DNA of 51,993 bases from Patescibacteria group bacterium (GTDB lineage: Bacteria; Patescibacteriota; Patescibacteriia; UBA9934; GWF2-40-263): positions 1-51,993 of the forward strand of contig JAHJAM010000012.1 of the NCBI GenBank assembly GCA_018814025.1. The letters run 5' to 3'. Shown one piece after another: positions 1 to 5,243 of this stretch; position 1 is the first letter of the stretch, and every line of letters starts with the position of its first letter. Under the pieces are notes generated by a model, which made no database searches, was not told the DNA's origin, and saw nothing but the letters and a program-made list of their open reading frames with translations. A program made the position numbers and the translations under genes.

Positions 1-348
1 ATAAGTACCGCGCGGCACGGCTGTTATGCGCACAGTGCCTTGGTTTTTGTCCATTTCGAAAAATTGAATGGCATCGCAATGCCCAGCGGTTTGCCCGGCT
101 CGGCTGTCCAGGCCAATGAGGAGGATGCGGACTAGGCCATCTTCGCCAAACGGATCAGCGTCCAGATCTTCTTCCAGCGCCTGGGTGCGGCGGTTGTCCA
201 TGATTTGCTTGATGGCGGCCGGGGTTTCTTGAGCGCCCTGGACCTGGGGATGAGGCAAACCGAAAAAAAGCAGGCCATAAATGAAGACTGCCAAAGCCAC
301 GAGGAAAATGGCGGGTATCAGAACAGTGCGCAATTGCCGGATTTTCAT
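1..348 (-). CDS. LCP (LytR/CpsA/Psr) family protein, N-terminal part; the gene runs off the window edge
   Basis: A reverse-strand ATG at 348..346 opens MKIRQLRTVLIPAIFLVALAVFIYGLLFF (TM anchor), then VRILLIGLDSRAGQTAGHCDAIQFFEM...VRITAVPRGTY, which is a typical LCP-domain start. It is absent from the ORF track because the window edge truncates it. Confidence 0.6.
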   Translation of the reverse strand, partial: MKIRQLRTVLIPAIFLVALAVFIYGLLFFGLPHPQVQGAQETPAAIKQIMDNRRTQALEEDLDADPFGEDGLVRILLIGLDSRAGQTAGHCDAIQFFEMDKNQGTVRITAVPRGTY

Positions 349-478
349 AAGACCGCAGAAGTTGGTGGTGATTCAGGATGGTGTGTCTTGCGTAATATAT
401 ACATTTTTGTTATTATTCGTCCACAATTCAATACCCTGAAGCGACGAATCAAGTGAGTTTTAGGGATTTGATACATAT

Positions 479-573
479 TCCGGGGTAGCTTCAGCCAAAG
501 GCTGATCAGCCTCCGGCTGACAGTGGCAGAGCAGTGCCAGCCAAAGGCTGGCCAGCCTCCGGCTGGGACTGTT
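479..573 (+). pseudogene. Degenerate duplicate of the 5' half of tRNA-Asn (tRNA positions 1 through the third anticodon base), interrupted by two 30-nt inserts
   Basis: TCCGGGGTAGCT (479-490), CAGTGGCAGAGCAGTG (521-536) and GACTGTT (567-573) together are identical to nt 821-855 of the intact tRNA downstream. There is no 3' half. Confidence 0.75.
491..566 (+). repeat. Two copies of a 30-nt double-hairpin element (491-520 and 537-566)
   Basis: Copy 1 is T-CAGCC-AAA-GGCTG-A followed by T-CAGCC-TCC-GGCTG-A. Copy 2 is C-CAGCC-AAA-GGCTG-G followed by C-CAGCC-TCC-GGCTG-G. The only differences are the closing pairs, T:A changed to C:G, in both hairpins. Confidence 0.8.
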
Positions 574-855
574 CAATAATAAGTATGTTCAGCGTTTATG
601 TTCTTCGCAGTACAACCAATAATAAGCGATATGTTGGTTTTACTTCGAAGCCAGTAAACGAAAGGCTGGCGGATCATTTGAGTGGATCGAATCCTTGGAC
701 AAGAAGGAATGGCCCATTCAAGATAATTTATCAAGAACTGTTCGAGGATAAGACCACAGCTATTCGCCGCGAACACTTTTTAAAAAGTGGTCAAGGACGA
801 AAATGGCTTGATGAAAATATTCCGGGGTAGCTCAGTGGCAGAGCAGTGGACTGTT
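574..855 (+). mobile_element. Putative GIY-YIG cassette inserted at the tRNA-Asn anticodon loop, carrying a replacement tRNA 5' half at its right end
   Basis: Homology between the upstream half-tRNA copy and the intact tRNA stops exactly after anticodon GTT (573 and 855). The intervening 282 nt are essentially one GIY-YIG ORF plus the 35-nt tRNA 5' half. Confidence 0.4.
585..830 (+). CDS. Small stand-alone GIY-YIG nuclease-domain protein (UPF0213/YhbQ-like), 81 aa
   Basis: MFSVYVLRSTTNNKRYVGFTSKPVNERLADHLSG...RREHFLKSGQGRKWL carries the GIY (VYVL) and YIG (RYVGFT) motifs plus the R..E core. ATG 585 is preferred over the track start at 534, which reads through the hairpin repeat. The TAG stop (828-830) lies inside the tRNA acceptor stem. 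Confidence 0.8.
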   Translation: MFSVYVLRSTTNNKRYVGFTSKPVNERLADHLSGSNPWTRRNGPFKIIYQELFEDKTTAIRREHFLKSGQGRKWLDENIPG

Positions 856-895
856 AATCCATTGGTCGTGGGTTCGAATCCCACCCCCGGAGCCA
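821..895 (+). tRNA. tRNA-Asn (anticodon GUU), CCA encoded
   Basis: Hand-folded cloverleaf. Acceptor stem TCCGGGG/CCCCGGA, D-stem GCTC/GAGC, anticodon stem GTGGA/TCCAT with loop CTGTTAA, T-arm GTGGG-TTCGAAT-CCCAC, discriminator G, then CCA. Total 75 nt. Confidence 0.93.
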
Positions 896-899
896 AGAG

Positions 900-932
900 A
901 ACTCGAACTGTTAAAGGTTCGAGTTTTGTTTT
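900..932 (+). terminator. Intrinsic terminator after tRNA-Asn
   Basis: Stem AACTCGAAC / GTTCGAGTT with an 8-nt loop, followed by TTTTGTTTT. Confidence 0.7.
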
Positions 933-978
933 ATACTTCATTCACAGGTAACAATTAGATAATTTTTCCATCAGCGAT

Positions 979-1173
979 ATGAATATCCCAAAGTTCGTAA
1001 TGGCCATTTTGTTAATCATTCCAGGTGCATTTATGATTTGCGATAGTGTTTTAGCTTGGCTTGGGAATGAAGTTATTTTTTTCGATGGCGTAAACACTAA
1101 ATTCGAGTTGGTTGTCGGTTTTGCCTTGATATTTCTAGGGGCGTCAAATATGGATTCAAAAAATAACGATTAG
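979..1173 (+). CDS. Hypothetical small membrane protein (64 aa)
   Basis: ATG start, two hydrophobic segments, and a terminator hairpin at 1204-1234. Confidence 0.4.
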   Translation: MNIPKFVMAILLIIPGAFMICDSVLAWLGNEVIFFDGVNTKFELVVGFALIFLGASNMDSKNND

Positions 1174-1203
1174 TCCTGAACTTGTTCAGTATCCGGAACC
1201 GAG

Positions 1204-1234
1204 AAAACCGATCTGTTAGATCGGTTTTATTTTT
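1204..1234 (+). terminator. Intrinsic terminator
   Basis: Stem AAAACCGATCT / AGATCGGTTTT with a 3-nt loop, followed by ATTTTT. Confidence 0.65.
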
Positions 1235-1280
1235 CTGTCCCAGATGACGCGGGGGCGGGCGAGTGCTATGATATTTGCAT

Positions 1281-2249
1281 ATGAAACAAGAACATTCTTC
1301 AGCCAAAAGTTCGGCCAAAGACGTTTTCTCCTACTTGCTCATGATTATCATGCTGTACGTGGGGGTCATCAGTTTTATCGCCGTACTGTGGCAGTACATT
1401 AACGTGCGCCTGCCGGATCCGCTGCAATTTTACTATAGCGGGGCCACGGAAATTATCCGGACTTCGATTTCTTCACTCTTAATCGTTTGGCCGGTCCTGA
1501 TCTTTGTGACTTGGCTGATTGCCCGGGATATTCGGCACGAGCATGACAAGCGGGATGTCTGGATTCGCAAATGGTTATTGTATTTGACCCTGTTTATTGC
1601 GTCCTTAACCATCATTATCGATCTGATCAACTTAACCAATAGTTTCTTGGGCGGGGAATTGACCATGCGTTTTGCGCTCAAGGTCTTGGTGGTGCTGGTG
1701 GTCGCGGCCGCGGTTTTTTCTTACTACCTGTGGGATTTGCGGCGCGATCCGGTCAAGACGACAAAAGTGACGCGTTTCGCGGCCGCGGGCAGTGTGCTGG
1801 TGATTTTGGTTGCGATTGTTATGGGTTTTTTCGTGGTGGGCTCGCCCTCACAACAGCGGGCGCGGCGCCTGGATGAACAGCGAGTTTCTGATTTAAGCTC
1901 AATTCAAGGACAGATCCTCAACCATTGGGTGCAAAAAGGAACTTTGCCGGCTGACTTGGAAGCGCTCAAGGATCCGCTTTACGGATATGAAGCCCCCTTG
2001 GATCCGGCTACGAATCAACCCTATGAGCTCGCGGTGCGCGGGGAACTGAATTTTACCCTGTGCGCGACTTTTGACACGGCTTATGATCCGTCCGCGGGCG
2101 CGACCGATCGATATTATTACGAATCGCCGGTGTACCCGGTCGGGGGCAAGGGCATGGATATTTGGACGCATGATCAAGGCCGGACTTGTTTTGAGCGAAC
2201 CATTGATCCGCTGCTGTATCGCCAGGAAGAACCCTTACCAGTCAAATAG
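1281..2249 (+). CDS. Multi-pass membrane protein, DUF5671-like N-terminal region with a pseudopilin-like C-terminal ectodomain
   Basis: The first ATG is at 1281; the track start at 1275 is TTG. There are 5-6 TM helices. The C-terminus (GTLPADLEALKDP...DPATNQPYEL...FTLCATFD) resembles the globular part of type II/IV pseudopilins. The DUF assignment is from memory. Confidence 0.6.
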   Translation: MKQEHSSAKSSAKDVFSYLLMIIMLYVGVISFIAVLWQYINVRLPDPLQFYYSGATEIIRTSISSLLIVWPVLIFVTWLIARDIRHEHDKRDVWIRKWLLYLTLFIASLTIIIDLINLTNSFLGGELTMRFALKVLVVLVVAAAVFSYYLWDLRRDPVKTTKVTRFAAAGSVLVILVAIVMGFFVVGSPSQQRARRLDEQRVSDLSSIQGQILNHWVQKGTLPADLEALKDPLYGYEAPLDPATNQPYELAVRGELNFTLCATFDTAYDPSAGATDRYYYESPVYPVGGKGMDIWTHDQGRTCFERTIDPLLYRQEEPLPVK

Positions 2250-2255
2250 GCGAAT

Positions 2256-2717
2256 ATGAAAAACCAAGTAATTTCATTTTTACTGCTGAGCTCCTGCCTC
2301 GTCCTGACTGGCGGAGGTTGTTCTGAAGGATTGCCAGAAGATCAGCAGGTTGATTATGATCAGGATGTTAAGCCGTTGATCGAAGAAGTTTTTCCCAATA
2401 ATGCCGTGGCCGGCAGCTGCAATATGATTGAGTCCGGCAGCCACTGTTTGGATTACATTGGGTCATACTGGAATGAACAGGCCATGAAATTGAATTGTGA
2501 AGGCGCCGGAGTTTGGAGCTCAAATACTTGTCCTTATAGTGAAAACGGCGGCTGTCGAGGCACGGCCGGCACGATCATGGACACGGTGCTCTGGTCCTAC
2601 CCATACGGAGGCGATCCGATTACCGGCGAGAATGTTTATTATGAGGCCATGGCCTGCAATTCAATTCCGGCCGCGCAATGGATTATGCCGGATGATTTGC
2701 TGGCACCCAGCAATTAG
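2256..2717 (+). CDS. Secreted Cys-rich lipoprotein, hypothetical
   Basis: Signal peptide with a lipobox (LVLTGGGC). Seven further Cys residues. Confidence 0.6.
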   Translation: MKNQVISFLLLSSCLVLTGGGCSEGLPEDQQVDYDQDVKPLIEEVFPNNAVAGSCNMIESGSHCLDYIGSYWNEQAMKLNCEGAGVWSSNTCPYSENGGCRGTAGTIMDTVLWSYPYGGDPITGENVYYEAMACNSIPAAQWIMPDDLLAPSN

Positions 2718-2792
2718 CTGCTCGCTTCAGTGAACAGTAACCTGGCTTATGAATTAAGCGGCTTTCGGAGATGTGGATTTGTTGATATCATA

Positions 2793-2885
2793 ATGAAAGA
2801 AACTATTAATCATCAAAATATGGCCAAAGGCAAAAATGCGCGGAAAGAAGTTAAGAAGCCTAAGAAGGATGCGAAGAAGAAGTAA
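2793..2885 (+). CDS. Possible small basic protein (30 aa, MKETINHQNMAKGKNARKEVKKPKKDAKKK)
   Basis: A short ATG ORF in an otherwise empty 210-nt gap, directly followed by a strong hairpin terminator. No homology is claimed. Confidence 0.3.
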   Translation: MKETINHQNMAKGKNARKEVKKPKKDAKKK

Positions 2886-2895
2886 GTAGCTGAAA

Positions 2896-2934
2896 TAAAA
2901 CCCCCCGGACGATTTTTAGCCGGGGGTGTTTTTA
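2896..2934. terminator. Bidirectional intrinsic terminator
   Basis: Stem CCCCCGG / CCGGGGG flanked by an A-run and a T-run, between convergent genes. Confidence 0.7.
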
Positions 2935-4389
2935 TTTGATCAGTTTATCCAGGTCGAGCGTGCTGTCGAAGCGGATTTGTTTGACGAAGTCGGCGGCGTG
3001 GCTGACCACGATCAGGCAGCCTTCATAGTCGTTTAAGGCTCGGGCAATGACCGGCAGATGGCGGAAGTTGATGTGGTTGGTCGGTTCGTCGAAGATCAGG
3101 AGCCCAGGTTTCTGTAGGACGAATCTGGCGAAGCAGAGCAGGCCTTTTTGCCCTTCCGAGAGCGCGCCCACCGGCGTGGCCAGAGCGTCGCCGTTCAGCA
3201 GGAATTGGGCGCCGGTTCGACGGATGACTTCGTTATCCGGCTCATCCATCATGGCCGCCAGTGAGGCGTAAGCGGTTTCGGTAAAATCTAAGCCGGAAAA
3301 GTCTTGTTTGTAGTAGCCCACTTTGACTCCGTCGGCAATCGCCGCTTCCGGGTTGTTTCCCTCAGCCAAGGCTCGGAGCAGCGTGCTTTTGCCGATGCCA
3401 TTTGGTCCGGTTACCAAGAGGTGGTGTTGGCGTCGAAGCGTGAGATCAACTTTGGCTTGATGCGGTTCGTGGTCGATAATCACTTTGACTCCGGAGATTT
3501 CAACAATTGGTTGAGTGAAAGGTTGGGCTGGAATTTGAAAATCATTGATGGTGCGATCGTCGCGACGAACGCCGACCATGTTTTCTTCCGCCTCGGCCAC
3601 TTCATCGCGAAGTTTGCTGGCCAGTTTGCGCATCTTGCCGCCTTTGTGGGCAAAGAAGTTGACTTTGTCTTTGCGATCTTGAATGGTTTTGAGCAACTGC
3701 GCATTTTTGGCGCGATCGCGTTCGACTCGGGCCGCGATTTCTTCAACCACGTCTGAATAGTTGCCGTCGTATTTTTCCACCAGCCCGGTGTAAACGTCCA
3801 AGTGCAAGACGCCTTCGGTGAAACTATTTAAAAAATCAGCATCGTGGGAAATCACTAAAACGGTTTTTGGGTACATGATGAGAAACATCATGAGATGATC
3901 GATACCGTCACGATCGAGATTGTTGGTCGGCTCATCCAGCAGAAGAATATCCGGCTCTTGAATCAGGGCATAAGCCAGCAACAGACGGGCTTGCTGGCCG
4001 CCGGAAAGATCTCCGACTGGCCGATCAAGCGGAGTAGAAAAGTTTACGACTTCCAGGACATCGGCAATCCGCTTGTCCAGATTGTAGGGTACTTTTTTGA
4101 AAACACCGGCGAAATATTCTCGGACGGTTTGGGTTAGGTGCTCGCGGGCCATCACTTGTTTGGCCGTGGCAATCGTGGCGCCGGATTTAAGATGGATGCG
4201 GCCGCGCACGGGTTTTAACTCGCCGGTGATCAGTTTGAACATGGAACTTTTGCCGGCGCCGTTTTGCCCCATGAGCGTGTATTTCACATTTTCACGCACG
4301 GAAAAACTGGCCTCTTTCAAAATGAGGTTATCTGAGCTATAGCCGAAGGAGACTTCTTCAAAGCGGATGACGACCTGACTTTGTTCCAT
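2932..4389 (-). CDS. ABC-F family ATPase (two ABC cassettes, no TM domain)
   Basis: Two Walker A motifs (GQNGAGKSS, GPNGIGKST), signature motifs LSGGQQ and LSEGQK, Walker B motifs LLLDEPTNNLD and LIFDEPTNH, and a charged inter-domain linker. Confidence 0.9.
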   Translation of the reverse strand: MEQSQVVIRFEEVSFGYSSDNLILKEASFSVRENVKYTLMGQNGAGKSSMFKLITGELKPVRGRIHLKSGATIATAKQVMAREHLTQTVREYFAGVFKKVPYNLDKRIADVLEVVNFSTPLDRPVGDLSGGQQARLLLAYALIQEPDILLLDEPTNNLDRDGIDHLMMFLIMYPKTVLVISHDADFLNSFTEGVLHLDVYTGLVEKYDGNYSDVVEEIAARVERDRAKNAQLLKTIQDRKDKVNFFAHKGGKMRKLASKLRDEVAEAEENMVGVRRDDRTINDFQIPAQPFTQPIVEISGVKVIIDHEPHQAKVDLTLRRQHHLLVTGPNGIGKSTLLRALAEGNNPEAAIADGVKVGYYKQDFSGLDFTETAYASLAAMMDEPDNEVIRRTGAQFLLNGDALATPVGALSEGQKGLLCFARFVLQKPGLLIFDEPTNHINFRHLPVIARALNDYEGCLIVVSHAADFVKQIRFDSTLDLDKLIK

Positions 4390-4440
4390 AAAACGCGGGT
4401 TGTATCAGATGATGGCTGATTTAGTTATCCCAGAGCCGGA

Positions 4441-4716
4441 TCAATCGATTGGACTGATGGGGGATGGCGCCTGGGAATCCAGGAGTTCCTCTTTTTCATT
4501 TTTAGAGAGTTTTTTGATCCGAGCTTCTTCTTTTTTGGCTGATGATTCAGAAAATCCGCTTTGTGACCAAACAAGCTGGCAAGGACCGCGGGCTCGGGTG
4601 TATTTGGCCCCGGTTCCGGAATTGTGTTGCTTGATTCTCGCTTCAAGATTTTTGGTTATCCCGGTGTAGAGCGAGTTGCCTCTGCAGCGTAGAATGTAGA
4701 CCTGCCAAGAATTCAT
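4441..4716 (-). CDS. Small stand-alone GIY-YIG nuclease-domain protein (91 aa)
   Basis: MNSWQVYILRCRGNSLYTGITKNLEARIKQHNSG...AKKEEARIKK. The ATG is at 4716; the track start at 4737 is TTG. Confidence 0.8.
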   Translation of the reverse strand: MNSWQVYILRCRGNSLYTGITKNLEARIKQHNSGTGAKYTRARGPCQLVWSQSGFSESSAKKEEARIKKLSKNEKEELLDSQAPSPISPID

Positions 4717-4778: not shown

Positions 4779-5093
4779 TTATTCAAAGCTTAATTCGTCG
4801 TCGTCACCGTCAGCGTCCGGATCCTGGCTTAAGGCTTCGATGATCATGTCCATTTTTTCGTTCAGGGCTTTTAACTGTCTGGCCACATCATCATCGTGGC
4901 CGCGCGGCGCACTGCGGAAGGACGGCTTTTCATAGCGGTCGGTTCGGTCAAAGCGCTGACCGCCGGAGCGCGGGCGCGTGTCTCGGCCTTCTTTTCTGCG
5001 GAAGCATTCGAAACAGAGAACCGGTTGCTGGCCAGTGGGTCGGAATGGGACTTCGCAGGGCGAATGGCACTGGTCGCAAGTGGCTGGGTGCAT
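4779..5093 (-). CDS. CxxC-x17-CxxC zinc-ribbon domain protein. As assembled it starts at an internal Met, and the frame is open upstream to 5237.
   Basis: MHPATCDQCHSPCEVPFRPTGQQPVLCFECF is the family signature, and the gene sits directly downstream of a DEAD-box helicase, as is typical. See the frameshift finding. Confidence 0.75.
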   Translation of the reverse strand: MHPATCDQCHSPCEVPFRPTGQQPVLCFECFRRKEGRDTRPRSGGQRFDRTDRYEKPSFRSAPRGHDDDVARQLKALNEKMDMIIEALSQDPDADGDDDELSFE

Positions 5094-5109
5094 GGGGGGC
5101 TTTCCACCG

Positions 5110-5186
5110 CGCGGGCCGCCGAACTTGCTGCCGCCACGCGGGCCGCCGAACTTGCTACCGCCACGCGGGCCGCCGAACTTGCTGTC
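5110..5186 (-). repeat. About 2.9 tandem copies of a 27-nt coding repeat (SKFGGPRGG)
   Basis: Units at 5110-5136, 5137-5163 and 5164-5186 (partial), with 1-3 mismatches. Confidence 0.85.
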
Positions 5187-5243
5187 GCGGCTGTTATTCT
5201 TTCGATCCCCAGAGTTATTCTTATTAAAAAAGTTTTTTCATAA

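Follow-up and report, generated by a model that had tools for sequence, protein, structure and literature searches.

How a nuclease gene can come to end inside a tRNA gene, with a second copy of the front part of that tRNA lying upstream, is the question raised by a locus near the start of a 51,993-nt stretch of DNA from a Patescibacteria group bacterium (GCA_018814025.1, contig JAHJAM010000012.1, positions 1 to 51,993; hereafter the window). Here, an open reading frame (ORF) for an 81-aa (amino acid) stand-alone GIY-YIG protein runs into an intact tRNA-Asn, and the upstream copy, called the remnant below, is interrupted by two 30-bp inserts, each consisting of two small hairpins (double-hairpin elements, DHs). 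Based on the layout of the locus and its recurrence in other genomes, we propose, as a reading that is somewhat probable, that window 475-895 is a copy of a homing-type selfish cassette family which repairs the tRNA it splits. The hosts of the cassette are the tRNA genes of Patescibacteria and of a few other phyla.

The tRNA-Asn(GTT) is the only tRNA that ARAGORN calls in the whole 52-kb window, and the Rfam tRNA model scores 75 bits over 821-892. Its positions 1-35, through the anticodon GTT, are present again at 479-573 as pieces of 12, 16 and 7 nt, found by a repeat finder as three colinear exact matches, the third of which (566-573 = 848-855) is 8 nt long, one G being shared; the similarity stops at 573/574, past the anticodon. 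The last codons of the ORF, ATT CCG GGG TAG, span tRNA nt 1-10. To this extent the first-pass annotation, which had described an intact tRNA-Asn(GUU) at 821-895, a duplicate of its first 35 nt split 12/16/7 by two 30-nt inserts, and an 81-aa GIY-YIG ORF at 585-830 with its stop codon inside the tRNA, is borne out by the tRNA calls, by the exact repeats (which add four leader nucleotides to the duplicate), and by a match to Pfam GIY-YIG (PF01541) of 55 bits against a cut-off of 22.6. Its description of the upstream half as left to decay has to be given up, because all 35 tRNA-derived bases and the 4 leader bases are identical to those of the intact gene, so that the displaced half is not decayed; and the inserts are no random filler but conserved 30-bp DHs that sit at recurrent tRNA positions and are supported by covariation. 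Additionally, a separate public assembly (GCA_018822945.1, contig L081) matches window 208-4677 at 99.98% identity, which rules out faulty assembly as the source of the layout.

The two DHs of the window are homologous to each other, each forming two perfect 6-bp hairpins, and they differ in the closing pairs alone (T..A vs C..G). Within the 52-kb window their pattern occurs only in the remnant, and it occurs in none of 100 shuffles; hairpins of the more general CmGCC-nnn-GGCkG type are likewise confined to the remnant. An Rfam search of 479-573 returned no known RNA family, only sub-threshold miRNA and frameshift-element noise, and no intron was found in the window tRNA (ARAGORN, Rfam) or elsewhere in window 1-3000 (Rfam). 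An alignment of window 449-478 with the end of an older GIY-YIG ORF is suggestive at most. The tentative promoter box ahead of the unit was missed by the consensus promoter scan and its -35 is weak; similar boxes, TGTTATACT or TGTTATAAT, stand ahead of the remnants in the related loci L221, L001, L004 and L022. The consensus scan of the window found no separate promoter for the GIY-YIG gene. The terminator hairpin, at 898-927 (AACTCGAAC-TGTTAAAG-GTTCGAGTT), holds strings resembling the anticodon loop (CTGTTAA) and the T arm (GGTTCGA) of the window tRNA; either it descends from a 3′ tRNA remnant that has decayed very far, or the likeness is a coincidence. The features of the locus are collected in Table 1.

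Table 1. Parts of the tRNA-Asn locus, in window coordinates.
Feature	Position	Strand	Basis or remark
Candidate extended -10 promoter of the tRNA unit, TGtTATTAT (tentative)	408-416	+	Read by eye
Remnant piece 1: ATAT leader and tRNA-Asn nt 1-12	475-490	+	Exact 16-nt repeat of 817-832
DH1, TCAGCC-AAA-GGCTGA / TCAGCC-TCC-GGCTGA, after tRNA nt 12	491-520	+	TCAGCCAAAGGCTGATCAGCCTCCGGCTGA
Remnant piece 2: tRNA-Asn nt 13-28	521-536	+	Exact 16-nt repeat of 833-848
DH2, CCAGCC-AAA-GGCTGG / CCAGCC-TCC-GGCTGG, after tRNA nt 28	537-566	+	CCAGCCAAAGGCTGGCCAGCCTCCGGCTGG
Remnant piece 3 (B): tRNA-Asn nt 29-35, ending after GTT	567-573	+	566-573 = 848-855
Spacer from remnant to start codon	574-584	+	Read from sequence
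81-aa stand-alone GIY-YIG gene (UPF0213/SLX1-like)	585-830	+	Stop codon TAG = tRNA nt 8-10
Intact tRNA-Asn(GTT), CCA encoded	821-895	+	ARAGORN, Rfam; nt 1-35 taken as the cassette-side copy
Intrinsic-terminator-like hairpin and T-run closing the unit	898-935	+	Sequence scan

The same arrangement recurs widely. A scan of GTDB, one genome per species, with the motif ExFLKSGQG matched 482 stretches, 422 of which were confirmed as relatives; they are overwhelmingly from Patescibacteria, with some from Omnitrophota, WOR-3, Elusimicrobiota and Dehalococcoidia. Eighty of the 422 loci were analysed in detail, and the labels L086-L220 denote viral and metagenome contigs. At 76 of the 80, the ORF is followed within 200 nt, on the same strand, by a tRNA or by a tRNA-like 5′ end that was not called as such. 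The ORF stop codon is formed by tRNA nt 8-10, as in the window, at 41 loci; at 31 others the ORF has a stop of its own upstream of the tRNA, and four more overlap the tRNA in another register. At 24 of the 80, the ORF has its own stop and the tRNA or tRNA-like 5′ end begins within 60 nt of it. The tRNAs concerned belong to 12 isoacceptors, namely Asn-GTT (34 called), Ala-TGC, Val-TAC, Val-GAC, Ile-TAT, Met, Phe, Pro-TGG, Pro-CGG, Thr, Lys and Arg, and a metagenome contig (L120) shows the same design at a tRNA-Ser. The closest relatives of the window locus (L001, L221, L222 and L223) encode proteins 78-79% identical to its own. Contigs labelled Gammaproteobacteria, Bdellovibrionales or Planctomycetia ('binchicken' metagenome-assembled genomes: L001, L003, L004, L008, L010 and others) carry the cassette as in Patescibacteria; the taxonomic labels of such co-assembled genomes may be unreliable. 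At some loci whose ORF has its own stop (L019, L024, L067, L070 and L073, at about 2750-2840 in each), the tRNA is bracketed by a mutually complementary leader and trailer of 8-11 nt, the pairing of which lengthens the acceptor stem (as with CCCAATCTGC...GCAGATTGGG in L067) and may be a processing signal.

The remnants follow common rules. When the 260 nt ahead of each ORF were aligned, with gaps allowed, to nt 1-45 of the tRNA at the same locus, a 5′ remnant was revealed at about 60 of the 80 loci, mostly starting from tRNA nt 1 and separated from the ORF by an unconserved spacer of 1-50 nt. The inserts in the remnants are almost all exactly 30 nt long and lie after index 8, 12/13, 17 or 28/29, and 51 of 60 remnants continue for 5-10 nt beyond their last insert before they end (mode 6-8 nt); the hairpin-bearing remnants that reach nt 33 or beyond all have an insert at 27-31. 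The piece that follows the last DH differs from tRNA to tRNA (GGTAG in Thr, GGCTAGA in Ala, GGTTAGAG in Met, GGCTGTT in Asn), and because its sequence tracks each particular tRNA, it must be derived from the target. Mirror-image 3′ remnants, in the order trailer, 5-9 nt of tRNA, insert and remaining tRNA, were found downstream of the intact tRNA in L019, L049, L057, L067, L068, L070, L073 and L076. Other palindromic inserts, not of 30 bp (for example TCCCGATTTCATCGGGA), replace the D and anticodon arms in L116 (2230-2400) and L005 (700-790), so that the small palindromic elements that land in tRNA remnants are of more kinds than one.

DH-like inserts are present in more than 50 related loci, and the 53 distinct 30-mers, delimited solely by the breaks in the tRNA alignments, give the consensus TCCGCC-nnA-GGCGGA CCAGCC-Tyy-GGCTGG. 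With the two-hairpin model, 98.3% of the cells are paired and 85 cells carry a double (compensatory) change, and the paired percentage, the double-change count and the covariation score were each unmatched in 500 shuffles; folding as one long hairpin was rejected, with 77.5% of the cells paired, below the shuffles. The arms are strictly Watson-Crick, G-T pairs being near-absent, which argues for a palindrome kept at the level of DNA rather than an RNA helix. The DH next to the ORF covaries in sequence with the divergence of the ORF itself (Mantel r = 0.26, reached in 0 of 2000 permutations), ORF and hairpin being inherited jointly. DH2-type elements, uncommon in that they begin with CCAGCC, stand at nt 28 also in the four closest relatives of the window (L001, L221, L222 and L223), and three of these (L001, L221 and L222) are without a DH at nt 12, the position of DH1. 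Of the 234 hairpin units in the 80 loci and the first 3.5 kb of the window, 154 lie within 200 nt upstream of the start codon.

DHs also occur elsewhere, with at least 120 metagenome stretches and 15 viral contigs matching the pattern, for which the rough chance expectation is far below one match. The flanks of these free copies are TT^AA-like, with T at -2 in 112 and A at +2 in 110 of 137, and 16 of the 137 have clean 7-bp direct repeats on both sides, above the shuffled level, which suggests that free DHs were transposed with a 7-bp target duplication; the DHs of the window and the others within tRNAs have no target duplication. Inverted-repeat flanks, also considered, were in no excess over shuffled partners. 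Free DHs are mostly found in AT-rich intergenic DNA, often just upstream of a ribosome-binding site; some occupy the loops of larger hairpins (L113, L162, L165, L176, L213 and L219), and others form mini-arrays with 13-16-nt spacers (L102, L218 and L206).

Several observations suggest that the unit moves. In one relative (L083-85) the tRNA-Asn gene is unoccupied, with its own promoter TTGATT-17-TATACT, no ORF and no DH; the L083 gene is 97.5% identical to the window tRNA, and the neighbouring DUF5671 gene is only 65% identical to its window counterpart. Two tandem units of ORF and remnant are present in L040, tandem units of remnant and spacer that show a clean deletion of the ORF in L001, and at least four tandem 3′ units in L073; among the metagenome contigs, ORF-less remnants occur in L161, and in L116 an intact tRNA is accompanied by a second copy that is split by a hairpin. 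The 3′ end of an older GIY-YIG ORF precedes the remnant in L028 and L008, which implies that these loci were invaded serially. The tRNA on the ORF side differs from the flanking remnant in the T arm and the acceptor 3′ strand in L057 and in the anticodon stem in L070, and in L060 and L068 the intact tRNA differs from the remnants in acceptor or anticodon-arm sequence. Therefore, a whole foreign tRNA was imported with the cassette at these four loci. The rare isoacceptor tRNA-Ile(TAT) is accompanied by cassettes in L047, L060 and L068, and judged by the remnants of a different tRNA sequence in the latter two, it seems to have been brought in there by the cassette.

These comparisons also support part of what the first-pass annotation had conjectured from the window alone. 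A cassette that carries its own copy of the tRNA 5′ half is the rule of the family, as the search for other tRNAs preceded by a GIY-YIG ORF and a half-tRNA turned up about 60 such cases among the 80 loci; the link of the nuclease gene to a same-strand tRNA directly 3′ of it and the stop codon within the tRNA hold as well, and the cassette looks mobile (12 isoacceptors, an unoccupied site, tandem units and ORF-less scars). Two points stand in part. Insertion into the anticodon loop fits the window, where the remnant ends after GTT, but elsewhere remnants end near nt 16, 20 or 22-26; and the comparison of empty with occupied sites yielded the unoccupied tRNA-Asn of L083-85 but no strain-level empty site for the window locus in an exact-pattern search of metagenomes.

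The protein itself belongs to a large family, with 3,421 cluster representatives at 50% identity (E-value up to 1e-10). Its homologues begin at the same Met as the 585 ORF, and most are exactly 81 aa long. Their C-termini end in ...FLKSGQGRKWLDENIPG, of which the last two residues alone vary; from the overlap with the tRNA across isoacceptors, therefore, these two residues represent the acceptor stems of different tRNAs. Y16, G18, R27, H31 and E63 are invariant in 36 sequences, and Y5 is present in at least 90%. Among proteins of solved structure in the PDB, a sequence search placed BH0048 and EF2693 of UPF0213 nearest (1zg2, E = 4e-8; 1ywl, 1e-7), then SLX1 (0.01-0.02), with I-TevI marginal (0.4). 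The AlphaFold2 model of the 81-aa protein (pLDDT 94.9) gave its top Foldseek matches in the same order, to 1zg2, SLX1 (7cq2, 4xlg and 6seh) and I-TevI (1ln0). Thus modelled, the protein is a stand-alone domain with the GIY-YIG alpha/beta fold, of a UPF0213 (YhbQ)/SLX1-like subgroup; the catalytic domain fills all 81 aa, leaving no room for a separate DNA-binding domain of the I-TevI type. A PADLOC search for anti-phage defence with the protein gave no match. For a phage origin, only a weak match to a PHROG 'homing endonuclease' was found, and signatures of hairpin-encoded peptide in the N-terminal extensions of homologues (7 of 148 proteins) were too few to be used.

Based on these findings, we propose the following mechanism. 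The cassette would consist, from left to right, of a 30-bp DH, a short spacer, and the GIY-YIG gene fused head-to-tail to a copy of the tRNA 5′ part; in some relatives the cassette has a whole tRNA in its place. Insertion would split the resident tRNA, so that the 5′ part brought by the cassette and the resident 3′ part make up the working tRNA-Asn at 821-895, and the displaced resident 5′ part would stay upstream, broken up by the DHs. First, the nuclease would cut cassette-free tRNA genes at T-rich sites, one of which in tRNA-Asn would be GTT^AA of the anticodon loop, where a TT^AA-like site lies exactly at the end of the window remnant. Second, repair of the break would copy the cassette from the occupied allele, with the tRNA sequence on both sides serving as portable homology arms; tRNA genes being among the few stretches conserved across species, such arms could be effective even between species. 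The DH beside the ORF would travel with it, and probably marks the cleavage or recognition site, since the junction lies 5-10 nt from it. Where the acceptor stems of donor and recipient are unlike, only imports of a whole tRNA would survive, leaving 3′ remnants, and tandem arrays could arise if the intact tRNA is broken time after time and the repair is out of register. The 5-10-nt spacing, the 7-bp duplications and the SLX1-like enzyme suggest that the break is made beside the DH, which is the weakest link of the scheme.

As for expression, the tRNA promoter would drive a transcript that runs through the leader of remnant and DHs, the ORF and the tRNA to the terminator. RNase P cleavage at 820/821 would then strip the stop codon from the message and could limit nuclease production, and the stop codon inside the tRNA could in this way couple RNase P processing directly to translation of the nuclease. 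Such removal is not obligatory, because 31 of the 80 relatives have their own stop upstream of the tRNA.

A number of points weigh against this proposal. We infer every step of the mechanism, including the nuclease activity, the target site, the role of the DH and the transcript, from the anatomy of the loci. The intact tRNA keeps all candidate target sites, which leaves self-cleavage unexplained unless recognition needs something else. Plain homing leaves two regularities unaccounted for as well, namely the in-frame fusion of the ORF at nt 1 of each new tRNA species and the constant distance of 5-10 nt between junction and DH. The protein is nearest to the structure-specific SLX1 and UPF0213 rather than to the sequence-specific I-TevI, and because it is a catalytic domain only, it has no DNA-binding domain of the kind seen in GIY-YIG homing enzymes. 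Furthermore, 109 of 129 free metagenome copies of the DH lie far from any GIY-YIG gene or tRNA, and all 15 DHs on viral contigs are without a GIY-YIG gene or tRNA nearby; most free copies being so placed, the DH has a life of its own. To these is added the missing strain-level empty site.

Of the alternatives, the one that survives best, which we nevertheless consider unlikely, is that the GIY-YIG protein mobilises 30-bp DHs, as RAYT does for REP, its gene being flanked by its own substrate. tRNA genes would then simply offer targets for DHs, and duplications or imported tRNA parts would survive by rescuing a damaged tRNA. Such a role fits the large dispersed DH family, the shared TT^AA-like target and the 7-bp repeats of free copies, the presence of a DH close upstream of nearly every gene of the subfamily, arms as strictly paired as a DNA hairpin or cruciform substrate would require, and a protein nearest to structure-specific nucleases; 7 bp is also the typical length of the tRNA piece between DH and junction. 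Mobilisation of DHs alone, however, explains neither the precise fusion of ORF and tRNA nor the imported tRNA parts, and it has to contend with DHs in tRNA remnants that lack a target duplication and with DH-bearing viral-contig loci none of which (0/15) has a GIY-YIG gene of the family. Moreover, no GIY-YIG enzyme is known to act as the transposase of a miniature element.

DH mobilisation is partly compatible with the homing cassette. We put forward a further proposal tentatively, as one that is less likely than not but has a real chance. The locus might represent a new class of bacterial mobile element, in which the 81-aa SLX1-related nuclease would recognise an extruded DH and cut about 7 bp beside it, and the ORF with a tRNA 'patch' would be inserted there, repairing the broken essential gene. 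Whole tRNA genes would thus be carried between species, and free DHs would be non-autonomous derivatives that transpose with 7-bp target duplications.

Group I introns offer another, quite doubtful, explanation, in which the nuclease took part in collaborative homing with an intron at the tRNA-Asn anticodon and the window copy is what was left after intron loss. Such introns (Rfam RF00028, 54-90 bits, above the gathering score) are present in the ORF-adjacent tRNA-Asn of 11 related loci (L006, L009, L016, L021, L023, L026, L030, L042, L054, L077 and L079), in genes to which ARAGORN is blind. They sit in the tRNA downstream of the GIY-YIG ORF, not around the ORF, and split the anticodon at GT|T (as in L009), one base from the end of the window remnant; in L221 and L222, which are among the closest relatives, a sequence that by eye looks like an intron is inserted there too. 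Against an intron partner, the window tRNA and most loci are intron-less, the same design is found at 11 other isoacceptors with remnants that end in the D arm, and one of the introns (L054) holds an HNH-type ORF of its own, read by eye.

It is very improbable that the gene is instead a resident of the host, a small nuclease with a tRNA-linked role in processing, quality control or defence that is kept next to the tRNA for co-expression, with the upstream fragment being a local duplication turned structured leader. An unoccupied tRNA-Asn in a relative, cassettes at 12 tRNA species, units in tandem, scars without an ORF, and displaced tRNA halves, whether foreign or native, speak for a mobile unit rather than a resident one; PADLOC gave no match, and the hairpin arms, in avoiding G-T pairs, argue against selection at the RNA level. 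In favour of a resident gene one may count that it is co-oriented with the tRNA and overlaps it, that a separate consensus promoter was not found, that the leader RNA folds strongly (z = -4.2), and that the ORF is intact, with catalytic residues conserved over thousands of clusters. Finally, tRNA genes are classic integration sites at which integration leaves partial tRNA duplicates, but an origin of the duplicate as an att-type repeat of a genomic island or prophage is effectively refuted, because the 282-nt insert encodes only an 81-aa nuclease and no recombinase, the duplicate is the 5′ part of the tRNA and not its 3′ end, and the same compact design occurs at about 60 loci.

Elsewhere in the window, a second stand-alone GIY-YIG gene, of another subfamily (Pfam 69.7 bits), lies on the minus strand at 4465-4716; it is 34% identical to a homologue of the first and has no tRNA or hairpin element adjoining. 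Contig L081 breaks off within this gene (window position 4677), a hint that a repeat interrupted the assembly. In the gene beside it (5090-5200, minus strand), three tandem copies of about 30 nt (GCAAGTTCGGCGGCCCGCGTGGCGG) encode SKFGGPRGG repeats.

If the homing-cassette proposal is right, a selfish element would inhabit an essential and universal gene with neither intron nor integrase, by carrying a spare part of the gene. This would explain why Patescibacteria tRNA loci are littered with tRNA fragments, and the assembly breaks there, the public contig itself ending in the other GIY-YIG gene of the window; it would also provide a route by which entire tRNA genes, the rare tRNA-Ile(UAU) among them, could be transferred horizontally. 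For annotation, tRNA finders miss or miscall genes with hairpin elements or group I introns, as at about 19 of the 80 loci, and gene callers run ORFs on through the hairpins. If so small a nuclease (81 aa) finds a specific site with no DNA-binding domain, perhaps by recognising a DNA structure, it would be interesting as an enzyme and might serve as a tool.

Compared with known systems, the cassette most resembles the mORFs of fungal mitochondria (Allomyces atp6; Glomus atp6, atp9, cox2 and nad3), which are endonuclease ORFs with replacement gene ends that form gene hybrids and in one case, atp9, use a GIY-YIG enzyme (PMC3630166). In both, an endonuclease ORF brings along a piece of the target gene that takes the place of the resident piece, and the native piece thus displaced is retained close by, unexpressed. 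The mORFs, however, are mitochondrial, concern the 3′ (C-terminal) ends of protein genes, and encode full-size LAGLIDADG or GIY-YIG enzymes, whereas the cassette is found in a Patescibacteria chromosome, concerns the 5′ part of a tRNA gene, and encodes an 81-aa catalytic domain only; moreover, its DH lies 5-10 nt from the junction, and the mORFs follow no hairpin rule. Enzymes of the type of phage T4 SegB are expected to have DNA-binding regions, like I-TevI, and the 81-aa protein is nearer to UPF0213 and SLX1 than to I-TevI by both sequence and fold. According to its abstract, SegB is a free-standing GIY-YIG endonuclease in a tRNA cluster that spreads itself and the flanking tRNA by cutting the rival allele; the abstract makes no mention of tRNA duplication, tRNA overlap or hairpin elements (PMC2330249). 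More generally, the co-conversion or import of flanking target sequence known from free-standing homing genes is matched by the imported tRNA sequence in L057, L060, L068 and L070.

The double-hairpin elements (DHEs) of fungal mitochondria are short, GC-rich, thought to be mobile, and found in intergenic regions and structural RNA genes (PMC10085805). DHs are like them in two-hairpin form and in dispersal; they are exactly 30 bp, strictly Watson-Crick and tied to tRNA-fragment junctions. In REP/RAYT systems palindromic elements lie on either side of the gene for their cognate enzyme, but the protein associated with DHs is GIY-YIG, not a RAYT-type (HUH/Y1) transposase. In the cyanophage psbA model, a free-standing endonuclease collaborates with a group I intron. 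Similarly, the endonuclease gene lies beside an intron-bearing gene in some genomes studied here, and the intron site is a plausible target; unlike in that model, the window and most loci are intron-less, and other tRNAs with D-arm junctions are used. With integrase islands and prophages the cassette shares insertion into a tRNA gene that is restored by sequence carried on the element, but those elements measure kilobases and restore the 3′ end through the att site of a recombinase, whereas the cassette is 282 nt, restores the 5′ part and has no recombinase. The full-text literature, subscription-only papers being outside the search, returned no description of the combined arrangement of tRNA, GIY-YIG gene and hairpins.

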